Part shown: piece after piece, positions 4,007-21,009 of the stretch
How positions within the stretch are numbered: the stretch's first letter is position 1
How the letters are laid out: every line of letters starts with the position of its first letter
From: Acidimicrobiia bacterium
Lineage (GTDB): Bacteria; Actinomycetota; Acidimicrobiia; Acidimicrobiales; UBA8592
DNA length: 64,000 bases
NCBI GenBank assembly: GCA_963854265.1
Contig: CAWKYX010000001.1
Coordinates: 396-64,395 of the forward strand
Direction: 5' to 3'
Notes under the pieces: model-generated
Databases searched by the model: none
What the model was told of the DNA's origin: nothing
The model's input: the letters and a program-made list of their open reading frames with translations, nothing else
Translations under genes and position numbers: made by a program

Positions 4007-4719
4007 TCATGACCGGACTACAAATCAAGGACCTCAAGGTCGGCTACAAGCGAAACCAGGTCATCCATGGCCTGAACCTGCATGTCGACCGTGGTGAGCG
4101 TGTCGCTCTCTTGGGCGCCAACGGCGCCGGCAAGTCGACGATCCTTAAGACCATTTCGGGACTGCTCACGCCAAGCACAGGCACGATCAGCTTCGACGGT
4201 GAGGATGTCACGGGTCAGAAGGCATCGAACATCGTCGACCGCGGCATCATCCATGTACCCGAGGGCCGGCGCGTGTTTCCTGCCCTCAACGTTGAGGAGA
4301 ACCTCCAGGTTGCCAACTACGGTCGGGGCGCCAAGCGCCTTGAGGAGGGCTTGGCCGTGGCCTACGCAACGTTCCCGATCCTGAAAGAACGCCGTAACCA
4401 GGCAGCTGGGCTACTCAGTGGTGGCCAGCAGCAGATGCTGTCGTTGGCCCGAGCTATCATCGCCCGACCCAAGCTCTTGTTGATCGACGAGATGTCGTTG
4501 GGGCTCGCACCGGTGTTGGTCAAGGAGTTCTACGACACGTTGGGGCAGCTCTTCTCCGATGACGTCACGCTCTTGTTGGTGGAACAGAACGCCGGTATGG
4601 CGCTGGCTCACTGCAAGCGTTTCTACGTCATCCGCAACGGCGAACTCGCACTTGAAGGCAATGCCGCCGAGTATCGTGACGATCCCACCGCACTGCAGTC
4701 GGCTTACCTCGGCGTCTAA
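4003..4719 (+). CDS. Branched-chain amino acid ABC transporter ATP-binding protein (LivF-type)
   Basis: Walker A GANGAGKST, signature LSGGQQQML and Walker B LLLIDEMSLGL. The start is either TTG 4003, which overlaps the upstream stop, or ATG 4009. Confidence 0.9.
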   Translation: MIMTGLQIKDLKVGYKRNQVIHGLNLHVDRGERVALLGANGAGKSTILKTISGLLTPSTGTISFDGEDVTGQKASNIVDRGIIHVPEGRRVFPALNVEENLQVANYGRGAKRLEEGLAVAYATFPILKERRNQAAGLLSGGQQQMLSLARAIIARPKLLLIDEMSLGLAPVLVKEFYDTLGQLFSDDVTLLLVEQNAGMALAHCKRFYVIRNGELALEGNAAEYRDDPTALQSAYLGV

Positions 4720-4738
4720 GCTCCCGTGTTCGACGCTG

Positions 4739-5239
4739 TCACCGGCCGAAGGGCAGTTCTTCGCCGGTGTCATCGTCCCACTGGCTGCGCGAGGTGGCGA
4801 AGAGGTCGCCGCCGTACACGTGTAGTGCTCGCATGGGTGCCGAGCCCGAGTTCGTGATCCGATGCACGGCATCGGGTGGAAGCGCCAGAGCGTCGCCCTC
4901 GCCCAAGATGGCTCGGCCTGTTTCTGCGATCCCGTCGGACATGCGATCGTAGAAAATGTTGTCTTCGTTGCCTTGATAGATCCCGACCACAGCCCAGATG
5001 GTGTGGTTGTGGGCCGGGCTGACAAAGCCCGCCGCCACCTCGAGCCCGAGCACGGTGAGGTTGTCGTCTCGATGCACAACCGCAGCTTGGCCGGGCGCAG
5101 GCCGGAGCGCCTCGATGCGCGCGGACAGCGCGCCCGCATCGGCAATGACCGCTTGCACGGCATCGGCCACCCGTTCGGCAGCGTCAGGCTCGTCAACCAG
5201 TGACGCACAAGTTTGGACGAAGGCAGCCAGGTCGGTCAT
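4739..5239 (-). CDS. Cupin / double-stranded beta-helix metal-dependent protein (cysteine-dioxygenase-like fold)
   Basis: The 166-aa ORF has SPAHNHTIWAVVGIYQGNEDNIFY ... HRITNSGSAPMRALHVYGGDL, which is a cupin-type His-containing pattern. It is convergent with the liv operon. Confidence 0.5.
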   Translation of the reverse strand: MTDLAAFVQTCASLVDEPDAAERVADAVQAVIADAGALSARIEALRPAPGQAAVVHRDDNLTVLGLEVAAGFVSPAHNHTIWAVVGIYQGNEDNIFYDRMSDGIAETGRAILGEGDALALPPDAVHRITNSGSAPMRALHVYGGDLFATSRSQWDDDTGEELPFGR

Positions 5240-5320
5240 GACGCGACTTTAGTCCTGAGTCGCCGGGCCTGGCCGGTGGCCACTAGGTTCGACCCCTTGG
5301 CCGCCGCTCCCTCCAGCTTC

Positions 5321-6694
5321 ATGACACCCGTTCCGACGCGGGCATGGGTGGTGCTCATCGTGGTGAGCATTGGACAGATGACCACCACGTTCGCCGGCTC
5401 GGCACTCAACGTTGGTTTCGGTGTCATCGAAGAAGACCTCGGCGTTGAACGAACGACGTTGGCTTGGTCGATATCCGGCTATGCGATCGCGGCGGCCGCG
5501 TTCATCCTGGCTGCCGGCCGAGCGGTCGACCGCGTCGGCGGCCGCCGAGTGTTCTTGTGGGGCATGGCGGGGTTCGCTGTGGGTTCGCTGGTGTCGGCGG
5601 TGGCGCCAGGGGCAGGCACGTTGATAGCGGGTCGAGTTATCCAGGGGCTCGCAGCGTCGGCCATGATTCCCAGCTCACTGAGTCTGGCGTTGCACGAGTT
5701 TCCCCTTCAACGCCGATCGCTAGCCGTGAGTGTGTGGGGTGGCATTGCCGCGGTCGCCGGCGCCTCCGGCCCACCGCTTGGGGCGGCGCTGATCGAGCTG
5801 GGCAGTTGGCGCTTGGTCTTCGTTGTTCTTGTCGTCTTCAGCGTGGGGGTGTTCATCATTGGGTTTGTGGTGCTGACTGATCCGCCGTTGGGGCGGTCTC
5901 AGGGGCGCGTCGACGTCATCAGCGGGCCCTTGGCTTCCTTGGCCGTTGGGCTTCTGGTGGCCGCGCTGTTACAAAGCGCCGTATGGGGGTGGGGTGATGC
6001 GCGCGTCTTGGCCGCGTTGGCGGCTTCGCCGATCCTGCTCGCCGTGGTCGGGCGACGCTCCTCGACCCATCCGACTCCGCTGGTGGACCTCGCGCTGCTA
6101 CGCAAGCGCCGATTCGTGACTGCGTCATCGATGACCACCGTCTACAACGCCGCAGCAACCGGCTACTGGCTGGCCGCCCCGCTCTTTTTGCAGACCATTC
6201 GGGACTGGAGCATCCTCCAGTCAGGGTTCGGAATTATCGGTACACCCATCACGCACATGCTCGTCACCGGCCCCTTTGGACGGCTGGCCGACCAGGGTCG
6301 GCACAAGTTGCTGATGGTCATCGGTGCGTTGATGACCGCCGGGGCCTTTGGCGGGTTCGCAATAGTCGTCACGGAAACCTCGAGCTACTGGACATCGATC
6401 CTGCCGCTAACGATCCTGTTGGGAGCTGGGACCGGGATGGCTTGGCCGGTGTTCACCTCGGCGGCGCTGATCGGTGTCGAACCAAGCCAGTACGGGCAGG
6501 CCAACGGGCTGAACCTCACCATGCGCCAGCTTGGCGCGGCCATCGGCATAGCTGTGGTGATTGCGGTCGTCGGGAACAGCGGGGAAGCGACCCTCGACGA
6601 CTTCTCGGCGGCGTGGGCTATGGCTGCGATCGCGTTGGTCTGCTGTGCTGCGGTTATCGCCGTTGCCTACCCGAGTAGATCGTCCGCCCACTGA
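5321..6694 (+). CDS. MFS transporter, DHA2 (EmrB/QacA-like, about 14 TM)
   Basis: ORF 5213..6694 is trimmed to ATG 5321, because the 5213 start would overlap the divergent cupin gene. The product has many hydrophobic segments and the DHA2-like motif LAAGRAVDRVGGRRVFLWG. Confidence 0.8.
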   Translation: MTPVPTRAWVVLIVVSIGQMTTTFAGSALNVGFGVIEEDLGVERTTLAWSISGYAIAAAAFILAAGRAVDRVGGRRVFLWGMAGFAVGSLVSAVAPGAGTLIAGRVIQGLAASAMIPSSLSLALHEFPLQRRSLAVSVWGGIAAVAGASGPPLGAALIELGSWRLVFVVLVVFSVGVFIIGFVVLTDPPLGRSQGRVDVISGPLASLAVGLLVAALLQSAVWGWGDARVLAALAASPILLAVVGRRSSTHPTPLVDLALLRKRRFVTASSMTTVYNAAATGYWLAAPLFLQTIRDWSILQSGFGIIGTPITHMLVTGPFGRLADQGRHKLLMVIGALMTAGAFGGFAIVVTETSSYWTSILPLTILLGAGTGMAWPVFTSAALIGVEPSQYGQANGLNLTMRQLGAAIGIAVVIAVVGNSGEATLDDFSAAWAMAAIALVCCAAVIAVAYPSRSSAH

Positions 6695-6774
6695 GCCGTC
6701 CCCGTTCCCCGGTGGGTCGACGGCATTGGACGCGCTGGCATAGTCTCCAACCATCACCCCGGAGGTAAGCATCC

Positions 6775-7167
6775 ATGCGTACGTCGACACCATCCGAAGC
6801 CGCTCTCGAGTACATCAACGCGTACAACTCACATGACCCCGAGCGGCTTCGCCGCGGGTATCACCCGGACTTCGTCGTAAGCAATCCGATCTTCGAAGGA
6901 ACCAAGAACGCCGATGAAACAGTCGCTTTCATCTCCCACGTGTGGGACACCTTGACGGGTGCTCGATTCGAGTTGTTCAATCTGGCCGTTGACGGAGACA
7001 CAGCGTTGCTCGAGTTCACGTTCGCGTGGGACGACCAGCGCGACAACACCACTAAGCGGACACCGGTCGCTGATGTCTTCACGGTGAAAGATGGGCTGCT
7101 CTACAACCTGCGCGCCTACATGGAGGGCACCATGGTGCACGGCTGGGTGGAAGAAATGGGCGGCTAG
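6775..7167 (+). CDS. NTF2-fold / SnoaL-like small protein
   Basis: The 130-aa ORF has a GGAGGTAAG RBS. The N-terminal EAALEYINAYNSHDPERL pattern is typical of SnoaL/ketosteroid-isomerase-like proteins. Confidence 0.7.
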   Translation: MRTSTPSEAALEYINAYNSHDPERLRRGYHPDFVVSNPIFEGTKNADETVAFISHVWDTLTGARFELFNLAVDGDTALLEFTFAWDDQRDNTTKRTPVADVFTVKDGLLYNLRAYMEGTMVHGWVEEMGG

Positions 7168-7210
7168 TCGCAACCCGCACGAGCCCGGCAAACGGGTTCG
7201 CTCGCCTTGG

Positions 7211-8002
7211 TCAGGCCAAGACGCCGTTGGGTGCGGCCTCGAGGTCGGCCCAGTGGAGGTTCACTGGACCCCCAATACTGATGAGGATGAAGTCGACGCC
7301 CTCGGGTCCAGGCTTTTCGGGCCCGTAGCTGCGGCCGCCCTTCACCCACCGGACGTCACCGGTTTCATAGAACGGTTCTTGTGGCCCGAACTCCATGGCC
7401 CCACCGATGATGAAGTACACGGTGTCGAAGTCGTGCCAGTGCTCACCGGCGATGTAGTCAGGCGAAAATCGGCTTCGGAGAATGTACGGGTCCCCGTCGG
7501 AGAGTATTTTCACGGGTTGGGTCGGGCGTCCGGCGGGGTCAGGGAAATCCATCCATTCGGGATCGTCGATGTTGACTTGTCCAAACGGCTGATCGAAGGT
7601 CGCGACGCGTTCGGTGAGCTCGGATGGGACGTCGTAGATGTCTGCCCAATTGAGTCCCACTTCGCCGCCGAGCCCGAGGATGAAGAACTCACAGCCCTCG
7701 GGTCCCGCTTCTTCGGGTCCGTAGACGTGGCCGGCCTTGACCCATCGGATGTCGCCGGGCCCGTAGCTACCTTCGCCGCCGACCTTCATCTCACCTTTGG
7801 TCATGATGTAGACGGTGTCGTAGGGGTGCCAGTGATCGCCGGCGTAGAAGTTGGGCGGGAACTGGACCTCGAGAAGGTTCGGTCCGTTCAGGGGGGTCAG
7901 ATTGCGGACCGGGCTCGTGGGGCGATCGTTGGGATCGTGGAACATCTCCCACTTCACATCGCTAGGGCGGATTCGGCCGTAGAGCGGTGCTGCACTCGTC
8001 AT
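7211..8002 (-). CDS. Bicupin protein (two tandem cupin domains)
   Basis: Two internally repeated halves: GDHWHPYDTVYIMTKGEMKVGG...GDIRWVKAGHVYGPEEAGPEGCEFFILGLGGEVGLNWAD and GEHWHDFDTVYFIIGGAMEFG...GDVRWVKGGRSYGPEKPGPEGVDFILISIGGPVNLHWAD. Confidence 0.6.
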   Translation of the reverse strand: MTSAAPLYGRIRPSDVKWEMFHDPNDRPTSPVRNLTPLNGPNLLEVQFPPNFYAGDHWHPYDTVYIMTKGEMKVGGEGSYGPGDIRWVKAGHVYGPEEAGPEGCEFFILGLGGEVGLNWADIYDVPSELTERVATFDQPFGQVNIDDPEWMDFPDPAGRPTQPVKILSDGDPYILRSRFSPDYIAGEHWHDFDTVYFIIGGAMEFGPQEPFYETGDVRWVKGGRSYGPEKPGPEGVDFILISIGGPVNLHWADLEAAPNGVLA

Positions 8003-8041
8003 GTGCCGAGGCTAGCAGGGCCCTGTCGGCCGAGGTCTGGG

Positions 8042-9538
8042 TCAGGCGAGCTGTTCGCGGAGCTCGACCTTACGGATCTTGCCGGTTGCAGTACGCGGAA
8101 ACTCCGTGACCTCGATGAATGACTCCGGCACCTTGATCTTGGCCAACCGGTCAACGCACCAGGCTTTGAGGTCGTCCAGGTCGGTGGGCTCTCGGAGCTC
8201 GACAAATGCTGCGGGTCGTTCTCCCCAGTCAGGGTCGGGCCGGCCAACGACGGCAACTTCCGCGACTGCTGGGTGGTCATACAGCACGGACTCGATCTCG
8301 CTGGGGTAGATGTTGACACCGCCGCTGATGAGCATGTCCTTGGCTCGACCGACGATGTACAGGTATCCCTGGCTGTCTTGTCGGGCCAGGTCGCCCGTAT
8401 GAAACCAGCCGTCGATGATGGCTTCGGCTGTGCGCGCAGGATCTCGCCAGTATCCGGCCATTACCTTTTCGGTCCGGACGCACACTTCGCCAACATCGCC
8501 GTCCGCCACGATCAAACCTGACTCATCGCGCAGCTCGATTCTGACACCCGGCACGGTTCGGCCACACGAGTCCAATAGCTCCGGGCGACCGGTCATAGCG
8601 GTGTCATGGTCGGCGGGGAGGAGACCGGTGAGATTGGTGACACATTCCGAGATGCCGTAGCCCTGGTACAGCTCGCAGCCGAACGCTGCATAGGCCCGTT
8701 CGATGAGCGGCCCGGAGGTGGGGGCGGCGCCGTAGACGATCAGGCGAAGGCTGGACAGGTCGCGCTGACCAAACTCAGGATGGTCGAGCACGAGTCGGAG
8801 TTGTGCAGGGACGAGAACGGTGATGGTCACGCCTTGGGCCTCGACTGCTTCGAAGAACGCCTCGGGGCTGAAACGGGGGAGCACAACATGGGTTTGGCCG
8901 TCGGCCAGCATCGAGCTGACGCGGGTGCCTGTGGCGGCGTGATACATCGGTGTGGTCGAGAGGTAGACATCGTCGGACCGGAATTGCTGCACCAGGGCCA
9001 TGGTCAGCCCGTTGAAGGCCAGGCCCCGCTGGGTCAGGCACACGCCCTTGGGACGGCCAGTCGTTCCGCTGGTGTAGATGACCAACGCCACGTCGTCTTC
9101 GGTGGCCCGGTCGATGTCGACGAAGGGTTCTGAGGCCAGAAAGCCGCGGTAGGTGTCACCGTCGAACTCGACCAGCTGACCGGTGGAGCCCAGGGCCTCC
9201 AAACGATCAACGTAGTTGGCGGCGGCCACGGTGAGCACGGGCTCGGCATTCGAGAGGATGTACTCGACCTCGGGATCGGTGAGTTGGGTGTTGACGGGCA
9301 CGGCCGCCGCCCCCAGGTACGCGACTGCCAGATAGACGTCGAAGTAGACCAGGCCGTTCCCGGCCATCAGCGCGACCCGGTCACCCCGGCCGATGCCCGC
9401 CGATTCAAGGCCTGCGGCTAGTCGACGGACCCGGTCGGCGAACTCGGCAAACGTCACCGATGGCCCGCCGGCGACTGTTACGGCCGTGTGATCGGGGTAC
9501 AGCGCCGCGTTGCGTTCCAGCAGATCAACCACGCGCAT
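8042..9538 (-). CDS. Acyl-CoA synthetase / AMP-dependent ligase (ANL family)
   Basis: IYTSGTTGRPKGV, GYGISE, WFHTGDLARQDSQGYLYIVGRAKD and PRTATGKIRK. Confidence 0.9.
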   Translation of the reverse strand: MRVVDLLERNAALYPDHTAVTVAGGPSVTFAEFADRVRRLAAGLESAGIGRGDRVALMAGNGLVYFDVYLAVAYLGAAAVPVNTQLTDPEVEYILSNAEPVLTVAAANYVDRLEALGSTGQLVEFDGDTYRGFLASEPFVDIDRATEDDVALVIYTSGTTGRPKGVCLTQRGLAFNGLTMALVQQFRSDDVYLSTTPMYHAATGTRVSSMLADGQTHVVLPRFSPEAFFEAVEAQGVTITVLVPAQLRLVLDHPEFGQRDLSSLRLIVYGAAPTSGPLIERAYAAFGCELYQGYGISECVTNLTGLLPADHDTAMTGRPELLDSCGRTVPGVRIELRDESGLIVADGDVGEVCVRTEKVMAGYWRDPARTAEAIIDGWFHTGDLARQDSQGYLYIVGRAKDMLISGGVNIYPSEIESVLYDHPAVAEVAVVGRPDPDWGERPAAFVELREPTDLDDLKAWCVDRLAKIKVPESFIEVTEFPRTATGKIRKVELREQLA

Positions 9539-12160: not shown

Positions 12161-12614
12161 CGGGTGCCTCGGCCGATGTGGTGAGCGAGGTGGCGAGCGA
12201 TGCCGGGAGGAGGACCTCGGCTTGCCCTTGCAGAATTATTTCGCCGCCGTCTCGCACCAATTCGACGTCGCAGTGGGCCATGATCCTGTTTCCGAGATTG
12301 CTGCTCTCGCCGTTCTTGGTTTCGCGAAGCTCGACCACTTTGCCCCGGGCCTCCAACCGATCGCCGGGACACGAGATCGAATGGAAGCGCATCTGGATCC
12401 GACGAATCGCCTGCGGCGAGCCAGCCCACGCGATCAGCATGTTCATTACGTAGGCGATGTTGGCCGGGCCTTGATTCACGCGGCCGCGAAGACCGAGCTC
12501 CGCAACCAGCTCCTCGTCGACGTGGACCGGGTTCATGTCTCCCATCACGTCCATGACGGCGACGATGTCCTCGATGCGGACTTCGGGAACGACGAAAGGC
12601 GGGATAGTGGTCAC
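12150..12614 (-). CDS. MaoC-like (R)-specific enoyl-CoA hydratase, hotdog fold
   Basis: The 154-aa ORF has MGDMNPVHVDEELV...VNQGPANIAYVMNMLIAW, which is the MaoC dehydratase pattern. It overlaps the flanking genes (GTGA with the upstream gene), so it is probably translationally coupled. Confidence 0.75.
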   Translation of the reverse strand: MTTIPPFVVPEVRIEDIVAVMDVMGDMNPVHVDEELVAELGLRGRVNQGPANIAYVMNMLIAWAGSPQAIRRIQMRFHSISCPGDRLEARGKVVELRETKNGESSNLGNRIMAHCDVELVRDGGEIILQGQAEVLLPASLATSLTTSAEAPDAD

Positions 12615-13057
12615 GATGCAGCCTCTGCTGTCCGGGGGAAGACATAGGTTTCGTCCGACACCACGATCAATATGTTGTCGGGGTCGACGAGCTCGAGATG
12701 CAGCGTCACGAGGTCGAATACCCCTGCTCGGCTGCCACGCTTTCGTTCCACAGAAGCAATGTGGCCGCGGACCAGATAATCAACACCGATGAGCATCGGT
12801 TGGTGGTAGGTGAGGTCGCCCTCACCGAACAGGACACCCGAGTCCATGTCGGCGCCGACCATGTCGAAGAACTCGGGCAAGTTCCATCCCATGCCGCAGT
12901 GGGGTGCCACGTGTGCATAGACCGGGTGGGCGACACCGAACGCGTAGTCCTCGGCGTGCACGGCGCCGACGGCCTTCGCGTGGGCTTCGGGTTCGATCAA
13001 ATAACTGCCGTCGGGGAGTTCGGTCCCGACAAGCGCTTCGAGGTCACTGAAGTTCAT
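12611..13057 (-). CDS. MaoC N-terminal-type hotdog protein (probable partner subunit of 12150..12614)
   Basis: The 148-aa ORF is immediately upstream of the MaoC gene and overlaps it. The arrangement matches two-gene hotdog hydratases such as ChsH1/ChsH2. Confidence 0.6.
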   Translation of the reverse strand: MNFSDLEALVGTELPDGSYLIEPEAHAKAVGAVHAEDYAFGVAHPVYAHVAPHCGMGWNLPEFFDMVGADMDSGVLFGEGDLTYHQPMLIGVDYLVRGHIASVERKRGSRAGVFDLVTLHLELVDPDNILIVVSDETYVFPRTAEAAS

Positions 13058-13178
13058 GATGTGGTCTTTCGCGCCGGGCCACGGGCCGTCTGATGGGGGC
13101 GAACCGTTCGACGTTTCAGGTTAACTATTAGCAGGAACTCGTCAACCAGGGTATTTTTGTGGTGACGGCCAGCAGACC

Positions 13179-14432
13179 ATGGGGGAACAATCGTTGAGCG
13201 ACACTACTGACGTCGACCTGACCGGGGCATTCAATGCCTACGTGACCGACCCCGAGTCGTGCGACCCCTATGACATCTTCGCCCGGATGCGCGATGAAGC
13301 ACCCGTTCTGTGGAGTGAGCCCCTCCAAGCCTGGGTCATGACTCGTTGGCCCGATGTCTCACGAATGTTCGAAGACACCGAGCACTTCGGTCCGCTGATG
13401 AACCAGCCCGGGACATCGAGCATCTTTGGTCGCGCGCTGCTCCAGATGGCGGGCGACGAACATCGACGCAAGGAAACCATCATTGCGAAACGTATCCGCA
13501 GCCCCAAGCGTCTGACCGCCGATCTCGACGACCTCATCCGCTCGCTGGCGGAGGAATATGGCGACGAGTTGCCTCTCGCCCCTGATGTCGCCGACCTGCG
13601 CACCGGGCTCACCGAGCCCGTGCCCCTCGGTGTGATCGCCGAGCTTATGGACATGTCCGAGGCCGGCAACTTCCGGCACTGGTATCAAGACATCGTTTCC
13701 GCCGGCATCTCCAACGTCAACAAGGACCCGCACATCCACGCCAAGGGCGAGGCCGCCCGCGACGAGTTGTTTGCGTTTGTTACGCCAAGCATCGAAGAAC
13801 GTCGTGGTTGCCCCGGCGACGAGCTGTTGTCCGATCTTTGCTCCATGGAGTACGAGGGCGAACGGTTGTCTGACGACGAGGTTCGGAGCTTCACGGCATT
13901 CTTGTTGTCTGCCGGTATCGAAACCACCGATCGCGCGTTCGCCAACTTGGTGAAGCACCTGATCCTCCAACCCGATCAGTGGCGGCGTATCAAAGAGGAC
14001 CGATCGTTGGTGAGCTCAGCGGTCACCGAGATCCTCCGGTATCGCCCGCCGGTCCAGGGCACGATTCGTTTGGCGCTGCAGGACTTTGACATTGATGGGA
14101 CCGTGGTCCCGGCCGGCTCGAAGGTGTTCTCGTTCATCTCCAGCGCCAATCATGACCCATCAGTCTTCAACAATCCTGAGATCTTCGATGTCGGCCGATT
14201 CGTCGGTGGCGAACGTCCCCACTACACCCCGATCGGGCCCGTACGGGCATTCGGCGCGGGACCGCACACCTGCACGGGTTCACTCTTGGCGAAACTCGAG
14301 ATGGAACGGACACTTGAGTACCTGTTGGACCGATTCGACCGGATCGAGTTCGCCGGCGAAGTCCCGGTCGACACCGGCTTGATGCTCCGGTCCCCGGCGT
14401 CGCTCGACGTGCTGTTGCATCCGGTCAGCTGA
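13179..14432 (+). CDS. Cytochrome P450
   Basis: Heme loop FGAGPHTCTGSLLA, I-helix LLSAGIETTD and ExxR in EILRYRPP. Length is 417 aa. Confidence 0.9.
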   Translation: MGEQSLSDTTDVDLTGAFNAYVTDPESCDPYDIFARMRDEAPVLWSEPLQAWVMTRWPDVSRMFEDTEHFGPLMNQPGTSSIFGRALLQMAGDEHRRKETIIAKRIRSPKRLTADLDDLIRSLAEEYGDELPLAPDVADLRTGLTEPVPLGVIAELMDMSEAGNFRHWYQDIVSAGISNVNKDPHIHAKGEAARDELFAFVTPSIEERRGCPGDELLSDLCSMEYEGERLSDDEVRSFTAFLLSAGIETTDRAFANLVKHLILQPDQWRRIKEDRSLVSSAVTEILRYRPPVQGTIRLALQDFDIDGTVVPAGSKVFSFISSANHDPSVFNNPEIFDVGRFVGGERPHYTPIGPVRAFGAGPHTCTGSLLAKLEMERTLEYLLDRFDRIEFAGEVPVDTGLMLRSPASLDVLLHPVS

Positions 14433-14507
14433 ACGCCGGTTATACCAGTCGCTATCAAGACCAACCGACGAAGACTACAGAAGACCACCGAGGAGACACG
14501 GAGACCA

Positions 14508-15302
14508 ATGGGAGAGCGACTACAGGGAAAGCGCACGATCGTGACGGGCGCGGGCTCGGGAATTGGGGCGACCGCTGCCGCCTTGTTCGCGTCTGAAGGT
14601 GCACAAGTGATTTGCGCGGACATCAACGGCGATGCTGTCGCCGCACTTGCGGCCGAGATCGGCTCTGCAGCCAAGGCCGTCCAGGTGGACGTGGCCGACC
14701 CGGCCTCCTGCGAGAACATGGTGGCCGAGACTATGGCTGCTTTCGGGGGCGTTGACGCTGTCTACTCCAACGCAGGTATCGCCGGGCCGGGACGAGCAGG
14801 TGACATCAGTCTCGAGGATTGGAACCGTGTGCTGTCGATCAACCTGACCGGCAAGTGGCTGGCGGTCAAGTATGCGCTGCCGCACATGATCGAGGCGGGT
14901 GGTGGCTCGTTGGTTCTCCAGGCCAGCGTCGGAGGCATCGTCGGCGTCCCCGGGATTGCCGCCTATGCCGCAGCCAAAGCGGGGGTCATTGGGCTGACCA
15001 AGCAGATGGCCGTCGACTACGGGCCCGACAACATTCGCGTCAACGCCGTGTGCCCGGGCACAGTCCCGACACCTCTCGTGCGCGAGACCTATGAGCAAAG
15101 GGGCGGCTTTGCTTCCACGGCGGCGGTCGGTGAGGATGCGACCATCGACGACATGATTGATGCTGCGAGTGCTCGTCACCCCATTGGGCGGGTGGGCACC
15201 ACAACCGACGTTGCTCAACTGGCGCTTCATCTCGCGTCCGACGAGGCCAACTGGACCACCGGGTCGATCTTCACGGTCGACGGCGGCATGACCGCGGCCT
15301 GA
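14508..15302 (+). CDS. Short-chain dehydrogenase/reductase (classical SDR)
   Basis: TGAGSGIGAT cofactor motif, NAG, YAAAKAG (YxxxK) and C-terminal VDGGMTA. Confidence 0.9.
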   Translation: MGERLQGKRTIVTGAGSGIGATAAALFASEGAQVICADINGDAVAALAAEIGSAAKAVQVDVADPASCENMVAETMAAFGGVDAVYSNAGIAGPGRAGDISLEDWNRVLSINLTGKWLAVKYALPHMIEAGGGSLVLQASVGGIVGVPGIAAYAAAKAGVIGLTKQMAVDYGPDNIRVNAVCPGTVPTPLVRETYEQRGGFASTAAVGEDATIDDMIDAASARHPIGRVGTTTDVAQLALHLASDEANWTTGSIFTVDGGMTAA

Positions 15303-15313
15303 GGGAGATCATT

Positions 15314-16375
15314 ATGACCGGATCACTGTCGCTTGAACATGGCGACGCGATGGAAGAGATGTTCGAGCGCGGATGGACCGACGGGCTGCCCGTCGTGCCG
15401 CCGACCCCAGAGTTGGTCCAAGCCATGCTCGATCATGCTGGTGTTGTGGCCACCGACGTTGTCGGCACGGTGCCCGAGCGGTCGCGGACGGTCACAGCCG
15501 ATAAGGCCGCGATTAACGCGGTCATGGCCGGCTGTCGTCCCGAGTACTTCCCTGTTGTTCTCGCCGCGCTGGCGGCCATGCTCGAACCCGTCTTTGGCGC
15601 ACACACCGTGGTCACCAGTACCGGAGGCGCTGCGCTGTGCGTGGTGGTCAGTGGTCCGCTGGTCGATGAACTCGGCTTCAACTCCTATCGCAACGCGTTG
15701 GGTCCGGGGAACCGGGCCAACGCGACGGTTGGTCGGGCAGTTCGTCTCGTGGCGATGAATGTGCTGGGAGCGCGTTCGGACAGTCTTGACGGTTCCTCGC
15801 TGGGCCACCCTGGGAAGTTCACGATGCTCGTGGCCGAGGAGGCCCCGCCCGAGGGTTGGGATCCGCTCGGAGTGGAACTGGGCTACGAGCTCGAGGACAC
15901 GACGGTCTCGATGTTTGCCACCGAGAGCCCGCACCAGATCGCTAACCACCTCAACGGAGACCCCGAAGGCATCCTGCTCACTTTCGCCGCGGCCATGAGC
16001 AACCCCGCGACGTATTGTGTCGGGAAGGGTCACGAAGCGGTGATCGTTGTTGGGTATGAACACCGTCGTGCGCTGGCCGAGGGCGGCTGGACCAAGCCGC
16101 AGGTCAGAGAATTCCTGGCTGAGCACAGCCGCGTTACACCAGAACAACTGGCTACAGGTGGTGTCCTGCTCGAGAACACCAAGCAGAACGACATGATCCC
16201 CGGACCCGACGGCAAGCTCGGCACGGTTACTGGTCCCGACGACATCCATCTGGTCACAGCCGGCAGTCCAGGCGCCGGCTGGTCCGCGTATATTCCCGCC
16301 TGGGCGCCCAAGGTCCACTCGGTCAGCGCGACGCGAAAGGTCGCGGCACCCGGAAATGGTCTACCGTTAAACTGA
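15314..16375 (+). CDS. Conserved hypothetical protein (353 aa), partner of the candidate selenoprotein
   Basis: The ORF is long with coding-like GC3 bias. The N-terminal ERGWTDGLPVVPPTPELVQAML segment looks conserved, but I cannot assign a family. Its stop lies 17 nt before the next start. Confidence 0.6.
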   Translation: MTGSLSLEHGDAMEEMFERGWTDGLPVVPPTPELVQAMLDHAGVVATDVVGTVPERSRTVTADKAAINAVMAGCRPEYFPVVLAALAAMLEPVFGAHTVVTSTGGAALCVVVSGPLVDELGFNSYRNALGPGNRANATVGRAVRLVAMNVLGARSDSLDGSSLGHPGKFTMLVAEEAPPEGWDPLGVELGYELEDTTVSMFATESPHQIANHLNGDPEGILLTFAAAMSNPATYCVGKGHEAVIVVGYEHRRALAEGGWTKPQVREFLAEHSRVTPEQLATGGVLLENTKQNDMIPGPDGKLGTVTGPDDIHLVTAGSPGAGWSAYIPAWAPKVHSVSATRKVAAPGNGLPLN

Positions 16376-16392
16376 AGCATCCCGGAGGTGTC

Positions 16393-16926
16393 ATGTCACT
16401 CATCACTATTTTGAGCCCTGAATTCGAGGCCGACGCACCCGAGCTGGTCCCAATGGCCGCTCGCACTGTGCCGACCGACCCGGTGACCATCACCATCATC
16501 GACAATGCGAAACCGAAAGCAAAAGAGCTCCTCGGCTACATCGCCGAGGGCCTCCGAGATCGGCTTCCTGTCGCTGATGTGGTTGTCCACAGCAAGTCCG
16601 CTGCCGGCAAGCCCATCGATGCCGACGTTGCCGAAATGTTGGCGGCGAGGTCACACTTGGTGATCTCGGGCCTTGGCGATTGAGGTGCTTGCACCGCGTG
16701 CAGTTTGCACGATGCGATCCAGATGGAAGCCCTCGGCGTTCCTGCGATGTTGTTGATCACCGAACCATTCATCCCGATCGTGGCGTCGTTCGCGCCGACA
16801 ATCGGAATGGACGACTATCCGGCCGTGGCAGTGCCGCACCCGGTCGCGCCACTTGATGACGATGGGCTGCGGAAGTTGGCCTCGACGGTGATCGACGAAG
16901 CCGTGGCTCGCCTAACTGTCGGCTGA
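16393..16926 (+). CDS. Candidate selenoprotein with a U-G-A-C motif (UGSC-like family); in-frame TGA at 16681..16683 read as Sec
   Basis: ORFs 16393..16683 and 16705..16926 share one frame. Read-through gives ...LVISGLGD-U-GACTACSLHDAIQMEALGVPAMLLITEPF... Coding bias continues across the TGA. A GGAGG RBS precedes 16393, and there is none before 16705. A hairpin follows the TGA. Confidence 0.6.
16697..16711 (+). promoter_or_regulatory. SECIS-like hairpin downstream of the in-frame TGA
   Basis: CGUGCA-GUU-UGCACG forms a perfect 6-bp stem that begins 13 nt after the TGA. The loop G and U fall at +23/+24 counted from the U of UGA. Confidence 0.45.
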
Positions 16927-17031
16927 GTTGCCGTTTCGCTGAGGGCCTGCAATCTCACTCTCTTTCGCGAGACAGCTACAGAACGAGGTAGTTCGGTCGA
17001 TGGATACCGGTGGAAGAGCCCGAGCGAAGCA

Positions 17032-17289
17032 GTGAACGCGAGAGCGAGCGGATTGTCGTCGAATTTGCGTTGTCGGGGGGGTGTGGCGCTGTGGACACCG
17101 TTTGTGTCGGCCACTGGGAAGATCCGTAACGTGTCCCTGACAGGAGTGAGCGTCGCGCTTGACAGCATGGAGCCCAAGATCACCCCGGGCACCTCGGCCA
17201 TGGTGACCATTGGAGATACGACCATCCACGCGAAGGTACGACACGTTGGACAGCAGGATCGACCATGGGACCCTTGCTACGGGCTTTAG
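17032..17289 (+). CDS. Possible small PilZ-like protein (weak call)
   Basis: The 85-aa GTG-start ORF lies in an otherwise empty ~510-bp gap. GKIRNVSLTGVSVALDS...GTSAMVTIGDTTIHAKVRHV resembles the PilZ (D/N)xSxxG beta-barrel segment. I see no clear RxxxR motif and no RBS. Confidence 0.3.
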   Translation: MNARASGLSSNLRCRGGVALWTPFVSATGKIRNVSLTGVSVALDSMEPKITPGTSAMVTIGDTTIHAKVRHVGQQDRPWDPCYGL

Positions 17290-17414
17290 TTCGTCGCTAC
17301 CCGAGGTGAGATTGCTCGCTGCCATCGCTGAGTCTCGATAAAGACGTCATCGAAGCCTTCGGCCGCAAGGTCACCCTCAAACCAGCCGCCGTCTGACCAC
17401 ATCTCCCCTCCGGG

Positions 17415-17433
17415 GCTGCGCTAACCGCGCAGC
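17415..17433. terminator. GC hairpin between convergent genes (candidate bidirectional terminator)
   Basis: GCTGCGC-TAACC-GCGCAGC lies 7 nt beyond the stop of the minus-strand crotonase gene. No strong U-tract. Confidence 0.4.
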
Positions 17434-17439
17434 TTCGTG

Positions 17440-18288
17440 TTATGCGCTGGCTTGCGGACCGTCGGAGTCCAACAAGCCGTCGTTCATGAGTTCCAGTGCG
17501 CGCTTGACGCCGTGGTCGCGCACGACCTTACGGAACGATCGCGCCACCTTGCTGGCCTGAGCCAAGACGTCGTACGCCACCGCCGACTCGCGCATGCCGC
17601 TCATGCCCATGGCTTCAGCCGCGGCGTTGGCCGAGGCCTTCTGGATTGTCAGCATCTCTGTGGCCGTCTTGGCAATCTCTGACGCGAGGTCGTGCACTTC
17701 ATCGGCGAGGCGATCGGCGGGAACCGACCGGTTGATCATGCCCATGTGAGCGGCTTCGGCGCCACTGACGAGTCGGGCGGTAAACAAGAGTTCCTTGGTA
17801 TGGCGGATGCCTGCGGTGAGTGGCCACAGTCCATGGTCGGGAGCGAGGCCGATGGCACGGGCCTCGGGCTGACCAAACAGTGCGTCGTCGGCTGCCACAA
17901 CGAGGTCACATTCCATCGCGATCATCAAGCCGCCCGCCACGCAATGGCCGTGGACTTGCGCGATCGTCGGCTTCGAGCATTCCCAGAGCCGCCGCCAGGT
18001 GGCGACCTCGCCCAGTACCCAATGCATCCCTTGGGCAGACGTTCGAGTCTTCGACGGCTTCGTGCCGATCGACTCATCCGGACTGAGGTCGTTCCCGCTG
18101 CAGAATGACTTGCCCTCGCCCCGGACGACGATGACTCGCACGTCGTCATCGTCGAGCAGCTCGGTGATTGCTTCATCGGCGGCGTCTTTGAGCGCGGTTG
18201 AAATGGCGTTGCGTTTTTCGGGTCGGTTGAGGACCAGATACCCGACCCGCCCTCGGCGCTCGGTGAAAACTGCGGCCGTGTCGGTCAT
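17440..18288 (-). CDS. Enoyl-CoA hydratase/isomerase (crotonase family)
   Basis: ORF 17440..18336 is trimmed to ATG 18288. LVLNRPEKRNAIS, FCSGNDL and HGHCVAGGLMIAMECD are crotonase oxyanion-hole patterns. Confidence 0.85.
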   Translation of the reverse strand: MTDTAAVFTERRGRVGYLVLNRPEKRNAISTALKDAADEAITELLDDDDVRVIVVRGEGKSFCSGNDLSPDESIGTKPSKTRTSAQGMHWVLGEVATWRRLWECSKPTIAQVHGHCVAGGLMIAMECDLVVAADDALFGQPEARAIGLAPDHGLWPLTAGIRHTKELLFTARLVSGAEAAHMGMINRSVPADRLADEVHDLASEIAKTATEMLTIQKASANAAAEAMGMSGMRESAVAYDVLAQASKVARSFRKVVRDHGVKRALELMNDGLLDSDGPQASA

Positions 18289-18421
18289 TGTCGGAGCGCT
18301 CCCATGGCGTGAATGTTTCCTGAACATTACCCTCACGACATGATGAGTTCAGAGGAATGTTCTGGTCAGCGGATTTGCGGTGTCTCGATGAGCGCTGTGT
18401 CTCGATGAGAACGGGGCCGAG

Positions 18422-19363
18422 ATGAGTGCGACTGCGCTGTTAATTGGTGGACGCGGCTTTGTCGGATCGCGTCTGACCCCGGTGCTCGTTGAGCGTGGGT
18501 TCCGCATGGTCTGTGTCGAACCCACGGCGACCAACCTCGGCCGCCTCACGCCCTGGGCCGATCACGTCGATCTGGTGACGGGCTCGGTAGCAGACCTTGA
18601 CGCCATCGCTGAGATCGTTGGCCGAGTCAAGCCGGACTTAATTGTGAACCTCGCTTTTGCACGCGGCCTGGGAATCGCCGGCGAGCTCGATGTCATGGCG
18701 CGGGGTACCTGGAACGTGCTCGAAGCCGCGGTAGCCGGTGGTTGCCGCCGGGTGGTGCTGGCGAGTTCTGTGCGGGTCTACGGGCCTCAGCGCGCCCATG
18801 GTCTCGACACGCTGCTGAACGAAGACTCACCGGTTAAGCCGATTCTCCGGTACGGCCACTACAAGTATCTCGGTGAACAGGTGGCTGCCGACTATCGCCG
18901 CAAGCACGGGTTGGAGGCAGCGGCACTCCGCATTCCCATGGCCTACGGGCCGGGTGTGCGCGAAGGCGCCTACGGCGTCTGTGTCCCGGCGCTGGCCGCA
19001 GCAACTGGCGATTCGATGACGCTCCCCTATGACGGGGCCGCCACGTTGTGTCTGGCGCACGTGGGTGAGGTGGCTCGGGCCTTGGCTGATCTGGGCGACC
19101 CCGCTGTCGCCCCGCCCCAACATGGCGTGTATGAGCTCGGGGGCCACATGGTCACCTACAGCGAGATGGTGGAGGTCGCCGCCGCGTTGGTGGACACCCC
19201 TGTGGACGTCCGCTTTGCTCCAGAGCCACGTGCGACCGAGTACGACTTCGCGTATCGCCTCGACAACCGGCGTCTCGCCGACGAGTACGGGTTCGAGCAC
19301 CGCTCGTTGGGCGACGGCTACCAGAGCATCATCGACCACGTGCGTACTGAGGTCACGCCGTGA
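18422..19363 (+). CDS. NAD-dependent epimerase/dehydratase (extended SDR)
   Basis: LLIGGRGFVGSRL Rossmann motif and YKYLGEQ (YxxxK). Length is 313 aa. Confidence 0.8.
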   Translation: MSATALLIGGRGFVGSRLTPVLVERGFRMVCVEPTATNLGRLTPWADHVDLVTGSVADLDAIAEIVGRVKPDLIVNLAFARGLGIAGELDVMARGTWNVLEAAVAGGCRRVVLASSVRVYGPQRAHGLDTLLNEDSPVKPILRYGHYKYLGEQVAADYRRKHGLEAAALRIPMAYGPGVREGAYGVCVPALAAATGDSMTLPYDGAATLCLAHVGEVARALADLGDPAVAPPQHGVYELGGHMVTYSEMVEVAAALVDTPVDVRFAPEPRATEYDFAYRLDNRRLADEYGFEHRSLGDGYQSIIDHVRTEVTP

Positions 19364-21009
19364 TCCGCGAAATCATGGGCCATACGTTGGTCAGCGACAC
19401 ACTCGGCGGCTCCTTCGACTGGGCTGTCGCCGACCATCCCGACCGGGAGTTCGCTTGGTTCGAGGACGAGGTGTACACCTTGGCCGAGCTCGACGATATG
19501 GCTCGCCAAGTCGGCGCGGCGTTGGCCCGCGACGGTGTCGAGCCTGGCGATCGTGTCGCAGTGTTGATGTACCCATCGCCATGGCACCTGGCGGTGCTGC
19601 TGGCGTGCGCCCGCCAAGGGTTCGTGTGGTGTCCCCTCAATGTTGCGCTCGCCCGCAACGACTTGACCTACTCCCTCGACGATCTCGAACCGGCATTCTT
19701 GTTGGTCGATGACGATCTGACCGGCACGGTCGACCTCGTCGTGGCCGAGCACCAGCGTCTGCAGTCGATCCCTCAAGTCCGCTGCGCAACGCACTCAGGC
19801 AAAGGTGGCCCGAACTTCAGTGATGGGTGGCTGACCAGCGATCGATGGCAAGGCGCATGTGTCGCCTCGGCGAGTGACAGCTTTGCGATCGTCTACAGCG
19901 GTGGCACCACGGGTCGGCCAAAGGGCATCGAGATCTCGCAGTTCTACTGCCTGTCAGCGGCACTCCGTCTCAGCGAGATGGCCGACTTCGACGAACACGA
20001 AACGTTCTTTTCGGTCCTGCAGTTCTCCCATGCGTGGACACCCATCACCATCATGCCGTTCTGCCTGATCTTCGATCACACGTTCGCGTTCTGGCGCTGG
20101 TGGAGTGCAGGCCAATTCGTTGAAGCGGCACACAGCTGTGGCGCCACGATCGTCGACCCCTACGCAGGCATGGCCTCGACCCTGTTCCTGAGCCAGGACG
20201 AGTTCACTCCCGAAGCGTTCCCGGCGACGCGAGGCGTCGCGGGTTGGGGCGGCGATGAAGAAGCATCCAAACGCATTCGGCATCAGTTCGAAGATCGCTT
20301 CGGTGTGCACACACTCCAGATGTATTCGCTCACCGAGGTCGGCCCGCTGGCTTGTGTCGAGTGGGAAGGCGAGGAGCGCCGCTTCGGGTCATCGGGTAAG
20401 CCCCGTGGCTGGTACGACGTGATCATCGCTGACGACGAAGGGATGCCGCTGGCCCAGGGCGAGGTCGGCGAGATCTTGGTGCACCCGCGATTCCCCAACA
20501 TCATAGCGAAGGGCTACATCAACCGGGCCGAGGACACGCTGCAGACCTGGCGAGACCTCTGGGTGCACACCGGCGACCTGGGCTACTTCGACCCCGACGG
20601 GTACCTCTACTTCGTGGGTCGCCAAGGCCACTTCCTGCGCCGCCGCGGCGAGCTCGTGTCGGTCAGCGAAGTCGAGGCGTTGATCGCCGACCTCGACGAG
20701 GTTCGCGAGGTGGTCGTGTTTGCCGTGCCGTCGGAGATGGGCGAAGACGACATCATGGCCGTGTTGACGCTTCATCCGCCGTCGACGCTGATGCCCCAGG
20801 ACGTTGTCGATCACTGCGCCAACGAGCTGGCTGCGTTCAAGGTGCCGCTTTACGTCCGAGTGGTCGACGACATGCCCCGGAGCGCCACGAAGCAAGAAAT
20901 CGAGCGGTTCCGGCTGGTGGACTTGCCCCGCGGCGAGCCGCTGCGGGCAACCAAACCCCGCGTGGCTACCTCGAACCCGAATGCTCAAACCCAAAGGGAT
21001 GATGCTTGA
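19360..21009 (+). CDS. Acyl-CoA synthetase / AMP-dependent ligase
   Basis: VYSGGTTGRPKGI, WVHTGDLGYFDPDGYLYFVGRQGH and PRSATKQEIER. The GTG start overlaps the upstream stop (GTGA). Confidence 0.85.
   Translation: MIREIMGHTLVSDTLGGSFDWAVADHPDREFAWFEDEVYTLAELDDMARQVGAALARDGVEPGDRVAVLMYPSPWHLAVLLACARQGFVWCPLNVALARNDLTYSLDDLEPAFLLVDDDLTGTVDLVVAEHQRLQSIPQVRCATHSGKGGPNFSDGWLTSDRWQGACVASASDSFAIVYSGGTTGRPKGIEISQFYCLSAALRLSEMADFDEHETFFSVLQFSHAWTPITIMPFCLIFDHTFAFWRWWSAGQFVEAAHSCGATIVDPYAGMASTLFLSQDEFTPEAFPATRGVAGWGGDEEASKRIRHQFEDRFGVHTLQMYSLTEVGPLACVEWEGEERRFGSSGKPRGWYDVIIADDEGMPLAQGEVGEILVHPRFPNIIAKGYINRAEDTLQTWRDLWVHTGDLGYFDPDGYLYFVGRQGHFLRRRGELVSVSEVEALIADLDEVREVVVFAVPSEMGEDDIMAVLTLHPPSTLMPQDVVDHCANELAAFKVPLYVRVVDDMPRSATKQEIERFRLVDLPRGEPLRATKPRVATSNPNAQTQRDDA

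Follow-up and report, generated by a model that had tools for sequence, protein, structure and literature searches.

The stretch of DNA analysed here, 64,000 nucleotides long and hereafter called the window, carries on its forward strand a coding sequence of 177 codons plus stop (16393..16926) that contains an in-frame TGA (16681..16683). We conclude that this is very probably a genuine selenocysteine-encoding gene of the UGSC family, producing a single protein of 177 residues. The two ORFs that make up the sequence, 16393..16683 (96 aa) and 16705..16926 (73 aa), lie in one reading frame, and only the TGA and seven sense codons separate them, as originally described. When the TGA is read through, the product is ...SHLVISGLGD-U-GACTACSLHDAIQMEALGVPAMLLITEPFIP..., and the peptide across residue 97 is SGLGD-U-GACTACSLHDAIQMEALGVPAMLLITEPFIPIVASFAPTIGMDDYPAVAVPHPVAPLDDDGLR. 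The proposed selenocysteine (residue 97) thus falls in the U-x-x-C motif that had been predicted, and the protein also reads U-x-x-C-x-x-C. The cysteine of the motif, Cys100, is encoded by TGC at 16690..16692 (forward strand) and occupies a conserved column of the family. Reading the sequence directly, we find a Shine-Dalgarno-like GGAGG at 16384..16388 (forward strand), 4 nt 5' of the ATG at 16393.

A second gene lies immediately upstream on the same strand. It encodes 353 aa (15314..16375) and is called the partner gene below; its stop codon is an ordinary TGA, and 17 nt separate it from the start of the UGSC gene. A scan of positions 13000-17500 for promoters and terminators gave nothing above background. 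The composition of the UGSC gene does not change at its TGA: GC3 is 0.72 over the 50 codons that precede it and 0.74 over the 50 that follow, in agreement with the original prediction. Elsewhere in the window TGA behaves as a stop, terminating 36 of the 50 long coding-like ORFs, the partner gene included. Hence, the recoding would be local and not global. Gene callers split the UGSC gene into pieces of 96 and 73 aa, again as anticipated, and each piece receives a PF24696 tag.

The UGSC family and the column of the TGA

[quoted passage not shown] The GOS dataset contained 255 Sec forms and 21 Cys forms (PMC2398784). A TGA-encoded selenocysteine in a UGSC protein is therefore already known, and the gene in the window adds a member to a described family. 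The resemblance to this family had been suggested from size and motif, and two curated HMMs now place the read-through protein in it at full length. The Pfam model PF24696 gives 155.6 bits (cutoff 25), with residues 6-175 aligned to profile positions 2-171 of 172. The NCBIfam model NF041046, curated as a selenoprotein family, gives 125.8 bits, only marginally over its cutoff of 125. Like other members, which measure about 177-190 aa and come in Sec and Cys forms, the protein has the site G-[LVI]-G-D-[U/C]-G-[S/A]-C, here GLGD-U-GAC, and continues for about 80 residues beyond it. The motif in the window is U-G-A-C and not U-G-S-C. The original prediction reported this UGAC motif correctly; it is an ordinary variant within the family and not a distinction: the GACTACS subtype is common to the window and to members from Acidimicrobiales and Solirubrobacterales. 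The reference member of the family comes from Hyphomonas neptunium (ABI76733.1), whereas the host of the window gene belongs to a high-GC actinobacterial lineage: its partner protein shares 78% identity with the one found in Ca. Poriferisocius (Acidimicrobiales).

Homologues have either Cys or TGA in exactly the column of the TGA, and they continue beyond it, which is what the prediction needed. Among 36 GTDB loci, the column is TGA in 10 and Cys (TGC or TGT) in 26. The ten TGA-bearing loci come from Acidimicrobiales, an Actinomycetes MAG, Solirubrobacterales and Chloroflexota, i.e. from three phylum-level groups. We also searched metagenomes with a pattern that stopped short of the hairpin described below. 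This retrieved 120 matches, of which 117 are UGSC-like, with TGA in the column and an open, conserved frame after it. Truncated homologues in the databases all stop after G[LV]GD; those of full length have the sequence GLGD-C-GACS. Cys100 is invariant in the alignments of Cys forms and conserved in essentially all UGSC-like Sec forms.

The hairpin downstream of the TGA

The sequence CGUGCA-GUU-UGCACG (16697..16711, forward strand) starts 13 nt 3' of the TGA. It pairs 16697-16702 with 16706-16711 in a stem of 6 bp and leaves a triloop at 16703-16705. Counting from the U of UGA as +1, the loop GUU occupies +23 to +25, which puts G at +23 and U at +24, exactly where the original prediction had placed them. 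Its thermodynamic stability is unremarkable (fold of 66 nt, z = -1.15; 27 of 200 shuffles fold as well). The significance of the hairpin thus comes from the comparison of homologues and not from the single sequence.

This comparison involved 122 distinct Sec forms and 26 Cys forms. In 94% of the Sec forms, the same register is paired over 5 bp or more and closes a G23-U24-N loop. The stem has at most 2 bp in all 26 Cys forms, including three with an identical ACSLHDA peptide. If synonymous codons for the window peptide are drawn at random, a stem of at least 6 bp arises about 6% of the time. The codon usage of the serine at positions 22-24 also separates the forms: it is AGU in 111 of the 122 Sec forms, and AGC or UCN in 23 of the 26 Cys forms. 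Paired cells reach 83% in the true register, against 21-47% when the partner strand is slid. The covariation score is 0.339, compared with 0.139 in shuffles, and none of 500 shuffles reaches the observed value. Both sides vary in six of the nine stem pairs, and the compensatory changes include some that alter the protein (His to Gln; ACSLH to AGSVL). A covariance model spanning 45 nt, the UGA plus the hairpin, scores 54 bits at the hairpin and 9.2 bits at the next best site of the window. It assigns 50-56 bits to Sec forms and 8-31 bits to the sites of Cys forms. These results show that the hairpin is conserved, that its strands covary and that it belongs specifically to the TGA forms, as far as the aligned sequences reveal. 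We propose that it may act as a bacterial SECIS.

The original prediction likened its geometry to that of the SECIS of E. coli fdhF, in which G23 and U24 are the critical loop bases and a bulged U17 lies on the 5' side of the upper stem (PMC8659212). The likeness holds for the loop and fails for the bulge. As in fdhF-type elements, the hairpin sits in the coding sequence just past the UGA, exposes loop G and U at +23 and +24, and constrains the codons that it overlaps. In alignment A6, G23 does not vary, and U24 is conserved to at least 90%. The differences are in the stem, which has 6 bp in the window (up to 9-10 bp in relatives) and closes a loop of 3 nt. Position 17 is C in the window and pairs with G31, so there is no bulged U17; this pair, in a stem without a bulge, occurs in 57 of 64 sequences. 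The stem of fdhF-type elements starts at +15, whereas it starts here at +17 (or +14). An Rfam scan of 16300-17500 matched no relevant family.

Proposed selenocysteine insertion and other readings of the TGA

We propose that the UGA at 16681 would be read as selenocysteine during translation. The hairpin would bring SelB and its Sec-tRNA(Sec) to the ribosome, where they would compete with RF2, and the product would bear a U97-G-A-C100 redox motif.

Another way to obtain the full-length protein is read-through without selenocysteine, for instance by near-cognate insertion of Trp or Cys or by a suppressor tRNA, in which case the hairpin would only stimulate read-through or would have some other role at the RNA level, such as in mRNA stability or pausing. 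We consider this very unlikely. Every homologue without TGA has Cys in this column, the hallmark of exchange between Sec and Cys, and the family is curated as a selenoprotein (NF041046; PMC2398784). The absence of the U17 bulge of the E. coli SECIS would fit non-Sec read-through, yet the loop G23-U24 fits the positions contacted by SelB. In one database entry (P0001) the codon is rendered as W; the simplest reading is that the gene was called with a genetic code in which TGA encodes Trp. The remaining argument in favour of this alternative is that the Sec competence of the source organism is judged from relatives, against which stands a close relative that encodes a Sec-type SelD beside the module.

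The original prediction had called for a search for this machinery. None of selA, selB, selD and tRNA-Sec is found in the 64-kb window, and ARAGORN, run on the window and on 60 related loci, detected no tRNA-Sec. When E. coli SelA, SelB and SelD were compared by tblastn with the window and about 1.07 Mb of related loci, the matches were a selD on contig L093 and three GTPase domains. One of these three was looked at as a candidate SelB, that of locus L110, and its 421-aa ORF is too short. The selD of L093 lies 4 kb from the UGSC module and has itself a TGA at the position of E. coli Cys17 (HGAG*GCK). L093 belongs to the same GACTACSLHDA clade as the window, and its partner protein is 69% identical. 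The class Acidimicrobiia includes organisms with a complete Sec machinery (bioRxiv 10.64898/2026.04.03.716425). From these relatives we infer that the source organism is probably Sec-competent and that selenocysteine is presumably inserted at residue 97 of its UGSC protein.

If translation ended at the TGA, we would be dealing with a pseudogene or with a split gene, whose parts of 96 and 73 aa would be translated separately. The annotation of the locus in two pieces by gene callers agrees with this, as does the lack of Sec machinery in the window, but TGA recurs in the same column in 10 GTDB species of three phylum-level groups and in more than 100 metagenome contigs. The second piece would also need a start. 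The original prediction placed its first ATG at 16705, inside the hairpin; the position is right, but the codon is TTG, an alternative start of the ORF track that could formally serve. It is correct that there is no usable ribosome-binding site: the sole Shine-Dalgarno-like run is the GAGG in UGA-GG, 19 nt upstream, which is too far, and the candidate start lies inside the conserved hairpin. Furthermore, the seven codons between the TGA and 16705, encoding GACTACS, are the most conserved segment of the family. Purifying selection continues beyond the TGA: relative to the related locus L067, dN/dS is 0.05 before it and 0.10 after it (66 codons, dS about 1). A true stop is thus hardly credible. 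The chance that the TGA is a sequencing or assembly error for TGC or TGT is negligible, since it is identical in six independent assemblies of the locus from different samples (four JGI metagenomes and two SRA runs), and since the window has the Sec-specific hairpin and the rare AGU serine codon that Cys forms lack.

The partner gene and a possible two-subunit enzyme

Of 154 loci, 120 have the partner gene next to the UGSC gene in the same orientation, and the median distance between the two is about 20 nt. There are 25 loci in which UGSC was detected without the partner, and 24 of them have less than 1.2 kb of flanking sequence on one side. The partner is thus adjacent to UGSC in nearly every related locus whose flanks can be checked. 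The commonest further family, an acyl-CoA synthetase, is found in only 15 of about 150 loci. Hence, there is no third conserved gene and no pointer from the neighbourhood to a substrate or reductant.

The partner has at least 7924 homologues, and all those with a source name are called "hypothetical protein". It has no sequence match in Pfam, NCBIfam or the PDB, and Pfam searches at E <= 1 with 43 of its homologues returned only noise. The family has an invariant Cys74 and a WTDGLP motif, and shows no recognisable cofactor or catalytic motif. Its AF2 model is of high quality (pLDDT 89, pTM 0.90), and the best PDB matches reach a TM of only 0.26-0.30, with no convincing structural relative among them. 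The Foldseek matches, class-I fumarate hydratase and Toblerone-fold hydrolases (TM 0.2-0.3), were not treated as homology. Three longer homologues (P0109, P0124 and P0141) were considered as partner-UGSC fusions; they carry a different C-terminal CxxC domain instead. We found no mention of the partner family in the papers that we consulted. The GOS paper reports a domain, "Unknown_1", fused to UGSC, and this domain could be the partner family.

UGSC itself has no sequence match in the PDB, and Pfam searches at E <= 1 with 49 UGSC homologues gave noise apart from UGSC. A thioredoxin-like fold was suggested for it in 2008 (PMC2398784). We modelled with AF2 the Cys homologue P0002, which is 49% identical to the window protein. 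The model (pLDDT 90) has a repeating strand-helix topology, and its best PDB matches are flavodoxin-like domains (TM about 0.5). In this flavodoxin-like alpha/beta fold, a buried beta-strand leads into a helix, and the redox motif sits at the N-terminus of that helix. On the predicted structure of this homologue, we reject the thioredoxin fold and predict that UGSC is flavodoxin-like.

The Sec site of UGSC bears a weak resemblance, at the level of sequence, to that of selenoprotein B (GrdB/GrdF/PrdB; TIGR01917, TIGR01918, PF07355). The window protein matches TIGR01917 and NF040794 at E = 0.0018 across the Sec region, far below the family threshold (17.2 bits for a cutoff of 602). TIGR01917 is also matched by 10 of 49 Cys forms, with E between 0.003 and 0.1. 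PF07355 (GRDB) has no match to the window protein at E <= 0.01, nor to the 49 Cys forms at E <= 1. When alignment A5 was compared by hhalign with the PrdB-like sequences of the GOS, the Sec/Cys columns coincided with E = 0.012 and a probability of just 3.6%. In both groups Sec occurs in U-x-x-C(-x-x-C) directly after a hydrophobic strand; next come a helix, a turn of the form E-x-x-G-[VI]-[PS]-[TA] and another strand. Both also have a larger non-seleno subunit encoded alongside. In contrast, the long N-terminal region of GrdB is absent from UGSC, and while GrdE/PrdA are pyruvoyl proenzymes, the UGSC partner matches no Pfam or NCBIfam model, theirs included if present. The hosts differ as well: those of UGSC are mostly aerobic Actinomycetota and Pseudomonadota, those of selenoprotein B are Stickland-fermenting clostridia.

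These observations lead us to a tentative mechanism, which is much less certain than the encoding of selenocysteine. The UGSC gene would be co-transcribed with the partner gene 17 nt upstream, and its product would most likely work with the 353-aa partner protein. The two would form a two-component oxidoreductase: the partner, as the large subunit, would bind the substrate, and UGSC, as the small one, would supply the selenol/thiol redox group. If UGSC acts like selenoprotein B of the glycine and D-proline reductases, its Sec would attack either the substrate or a residue of the partner in oxidised form, giving an adduct that Cys100 would resolve as a selenenyl-sulfide. The physical interaction and the chemistry are both proposals. 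That UGSC is a redox subunit of a widespread two-component enzyme, and not a stand-alone protein, is an idea that we rate as somewhat less likely than not; the pair might then be a distant analogue, in aerobic lineages, of the glycine and proline reductases.

Few selenoprotein families are as abundant in aquatic metagenomes as UGSC. Standard gene callers split or cut short the gene in the window and more than 100 others found here. The 45-nt covariance model leaves a gap of about 20 bits or more between Sec and Cys forms, and could serve to repair these annotations. The partner gene, the flavodoxin-like predicted fold and the weak resemblance of the Sec site to that of GrdB/PrdB are starting points for finding the function. 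If the two-component reading is true, the UGSC pair would be an undescribed enzyme, with a large subunit that has at least 7924 homologues.

Probable selenocysteine recoding in a UGSC-family gene

Re-reading the sequence confirmed that the ORFs at 16393..16683 and 16705..16926 (+) lie in one frame, split only by the TGA at 16681-16683 and seven sense codons. The read-through product has 177 residues (...VISGLGD-U-GACTACSLHDAIQMEALGVP...), with the candidate selenocysteine (Sec) at residue 97 in a U-G-A-C motif. Third-position GC content is steady across the TGA (0.72 before, 0.74 after). The ATG at 16393 has a GGAGG ahead of it; no comparable run lies at a useful distance before 16705, where the codon is TTG and not the ATG start of the original prediction. 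We searched profile databases with the read-through product, replacing U by C. It matched Pfam PF24696 ('UGSC family') from end to end, residues 6-175 covering profile positions 2-171 of 172 with 155.6 bits, and NCBIfam NF041046 ('UGSC family (seleno)protein') at 125.8 bits, narrowly over the curated cutoff of 125, which bears out the proposed family resemblance. UGSC is an established selenoprotein family, among the most abundant in the GOS data with 255 Sec and 21 Cys forms; the earlier Sargasso Sea survey had already turned up every GOS selenoprotein family (PMC2398784). A member was recorded in Hyphomonas neptunium (PMC1976440), and reviews of 2022 and 2026 still describe the family as uncharacterised.

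The window sequence is of metagenomic origin, and the same TGA occurs in the identical locus of four JGI metagenome and two SRA-run assemblies, which speaks against a sequencing error. As anticipated, gene callers split the gene: the identical locus is annotated elsewhere as two ORFs of 96 and 73 aa, each assigned to PF24696. One database homologue (P0001, ENA, 155 aa) carries Trp at the site, the TGA being translated straight through (GLGDWGACTACS), and was likely called under a genetic code that reads TGA as Trp. The genome of the window has not reassigned TGA, which ends 36 of the 50 long coding-like ORFs in the window, including the gene immediately upstream of UGSC. Three further TGAs, at 58235 (+), 22596 (+) and 18829 (-), also form same-frame junctions with coding-like composition on both sides, and are probably neighbouring genes sharing a frame by chance.

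In the protein search, homologues are either truncated at this column or carry Cys there. About two dozen cover no more than 54% of the query, from its start, and all those aligned stop exactly at G[LV]GD; full-length homologues read GLGD-C-GACS at the site. Among loci of GTDB species representatives, 26 have TGC/TGT as this codon and 10 have TGA, with conserved sequence carrying on past it; the latter comprise three Acidimicrobiales chromosomes, one Actinomycetes MAG, four Solirubrobacterales and two Chloroflexota. We also scanned metagenomes with a pattern that stops at U-G-x-C, so that the scan was blind to the hairpin discussed below; 117 of the 120 contigs retrieved were UGSC-like, with the frame open and conserved after the TGA. 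Against the closest relative (locus L067), dN/dS is 0.10 over the 66 codons after the TGA (dS ~1) and 0.05 before it, indicating that the post-TGA segment is under purifying selection.

The 64-kb window yielded no tRNA, and tblastn with E. coli SelA, SelB and SelD matched nothing in it. The related contig L093, of the same GACTACSLHDA clade and with an upstream partner gene (see below) 69% identical to that of the window, encodes a selD at 4674..5720 (-), ~4 kb from the module. The product shares 42% identity with E. coli SelD, and its reading frame has a TGA where E. coli has Cys17 (HGAG*GCK), making it the classical SelD of the Sec type. The nearest named relative of the window organism is Ca. 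Poriferisocius (Acidimicrobiales; partner 78% identical). For Actinomarina, of the same class Acidimicrobiia, a preprint reports the full Sec machinery along with a Sec-type SelD (bioRxiv 10.64898/2026.04.03.716425). The L093 selD and the Actinomarina machinery indirectly favour Sec competence of the window lineage.

A conserved hairpin downstream of the TGA

The predicted perfect 6-bp hairpin, CGUGCA-GUU-UGCACG, is present at 16697-16711, 13 nt past the TGA, with its loop G and U at +23/+24 (U of UGA being +1). Taken alone it is statistically unremarkable: its fold z-score is -1.15, and when the window peptide is encoded by random synonymous codons, a stem of 6 bp or more forms in 6% of draws. 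Its conservation is more telling. In the register where columns 17-22 pair with 26-31, 94% of 122 distinct Sec forms have stems of 5 bp or more and 116 have a G-U-N loop; none of 26 Cys forms exceeds 2 bp. Three Cys forms without the hairpin encode the identical ACSLHDA peptide, and the Ser codon at the stem-loop junction is AGU in 111/122 Sec forms and AGC or UCN in 23/26 Cys forms. Synonymous resampling that kept each protein produced stems of 5 bp or more in no more than ~6% of trials. Codon choice follows the hairpin structure. A subtype of divergent Sec forms with GSCTFAG or GSCTWAG (L118, L125, L140, L142, L160, L161) has a 6-bp hairpin displaced by 1-2 nt, with a 5-nt loop instead of the G23-U24-N triloop (for example UGCCGG-CGUGU-CCGGCA).

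Compensatory changes are frequent among Sec forms and some alter the protein. From CGUGCA/UGCACG, we observed CCUGCA/UGCAGG (His to Gln), CGGGCA/UGCUCG (ACSLH to AGSVL), CGGCCA/UGGCCG, CGUGGA/UCCACG and CGAGCA/UGCUCG. In an alignment of 64 sequences, 83% of cells were paired, versus 21-47% with the partner strand slid; 55 cells had changed on both sides, versus 16.7 +/- 3.2 in shuffles; and the covariation score was 0.339 versus 0.139 shuffled, a value reached by none of 500 shuffles. From this alignment we derived a covariance model, which scores the window site at 54 bits, with the next best site of the 64-kb window at 9.2 bits; other Sec forms, several of them training sequences, score 50-56 bits and Cys-form sites 8-31 bits. 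No Rfam family matches the hairpin. Loop bases G23 and U24 are those that SelB needs to bind the E. coli SECIS (PMC8659212). The likeness to the fdhF SECIS proposed originally holds for these two bases and fails for the bulged U17, which is absent because C17 pairs with G31. We regard the element as a putative SECIS that would act similarly to that of fdhF without being identical to it. In every respect open to testing, the gene behaves as a member of the UGSC family and as a bacterial selenoprotein gene. The recoding interpretation is supported overall, and we consider it very probable that the window carries a genuine Sec-encoding UGSC gene.

A two-gene module and its neighbourhood

The partner gene (15314..16375, +; 353 aa) ends 17 nt ahead of the UGSC start. 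It has no sequence match in Pfam, NCBIfam or PDB, and at least 7924 database homologues, of which all those with a source name are called 'hypothetical protein'. By tblastn, it adjoins UGSC in essentially all 36 GTDB loci and is present in ~95 metagenome loci at 27-75% identity. The two genes are same-strand neighbours in 120 of 154 loci from Actinomycetota, Pseudomonadota and Chloroflexota (partner upstream in 88, downstream in 32) and lie on opposite strands in none. With the partner upstream, a median of ~20 nt separates the genes; of all 120 pairs, 109 are at most ~150 nt apart. UGSC was too diverged for the tblastn query in nine loci, and was detected without a partner in 25; 24 of the latter have a flank shorter than 1.2 kb on one side, locus L123 being the sole possible exception.

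In Conexibacter sp. CPCC 206217 (L020), a second, divergent Cys-form UGSC paralogue (6642..7170; GSGD-C-GSCTSWS) and a second partner paralogue (7226..8203; 36% identical) directly follow the first module, a tandem module duplication. Three partner homologues of 432-443 aa (P0109, P0124, P0141) are extended at the C terminus by a domain of ~90 aa that contains a CxxC (...LRSDGADL...SQACADCVMP...); this domain may resemble a NifU C-terminal-like domain and might replace or supplement the UGSC subunit.

We found no third conserved gene family near the module: the top one, acyl-CoA synthetase, occurs in 15 of ~150 loci. It is followed by 3-hydroxyacyl-CoA dehydrogenase, ABC transporter components, CaiB-type CoA-transferase, luciferase-like monooxygenase and acyl-CoA dehydrogenase; acyl-CoA enzymes recur around the module in other loci, each in at most 10%. 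Window positions 12600..21000 and the wider L001 flanks encode a P450, two SDRs, a MaoC-like dehydratase pair, four AMP-binding acyl-CoA synthetases, SnoaL-like proteins, an enoyl-CoA hydratase, a 3-beta-HSD/epimerase, a luciferase-like monooxygenase, a TetR regulator and a CaiB-type CoA-transferase. Hence, the module sits within a catabolic-looking cluster, a setting similar to that of the other loci. A gene-free gap of ~510 nt (16927..17439) separates the UGSC stop from the end of the enoyl-CoA hydratase gene, which runs convergently; the gap has no Rfam match and no terminator-like site.

Predicted fold and possible function

We modelled UGSC with AF2 on the Cys homologue P0002, 49% identical to the window protein (pLDDT 90, pTM 0.83). 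The model is an alpha/beta domain of repeating strands and helices, with the C/U residue at the N-terminal end of the helix after strand 3. Its best PDB matches are flavodoxin-like domains of flavodiiron proteins (TM ~0.5) and not thioredoxins; the predicted fold is flavodoxin-like, contradicting the 'likely Trx-like fold' suggested in 2008 (PMC2398784). The partner model (pLDDT 89, pTM 0.90) has no convincing relative in the PDB (best TM 0.26-0.30). Its invariant residues include WTDGLP (21-26), Cys74 and TSTGG (101-105).

The window protein also matches TIGR01917 and NF040794 over their Sec region (E = 0.0018), and 10 of 49 Cys forms match TIGR01917; neither the window protein nor these 49 match Pfam GRDB. 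UGSC shares with GOS PrdB-like sequences the layout strand-U-x-x-C-...-A-x-Q-x-E-x-x-G-[VI]-P-[TA]-strand, and hhalign aligns their Sec/Cys columns with E = 0.012 but a probability of only 3.6%. These similarities suggest a weak but recurrent link to selenoprotein B of glycine and proline reductases. From this signal we infer a two-component oxidoreductase, in which UGSC would be the U-x-x-C redox subunit and the 353-aa partner the substrate-binding subunit, and in which Sec would make the nucleophilic attack and Cys100 would be the thiol that resolves it. That both proteins form a two-component enzyme is a tentative proposal, to which we give slightly less than even credence. The window gene adds a member to a known family, its UGAC motif being an ordinary subtype. 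The near-universal partner, the family-wide conserved G23-U24 triloop SECIS and the predicted flavodoxin-like fold do not seem to feature in the publications consulted.
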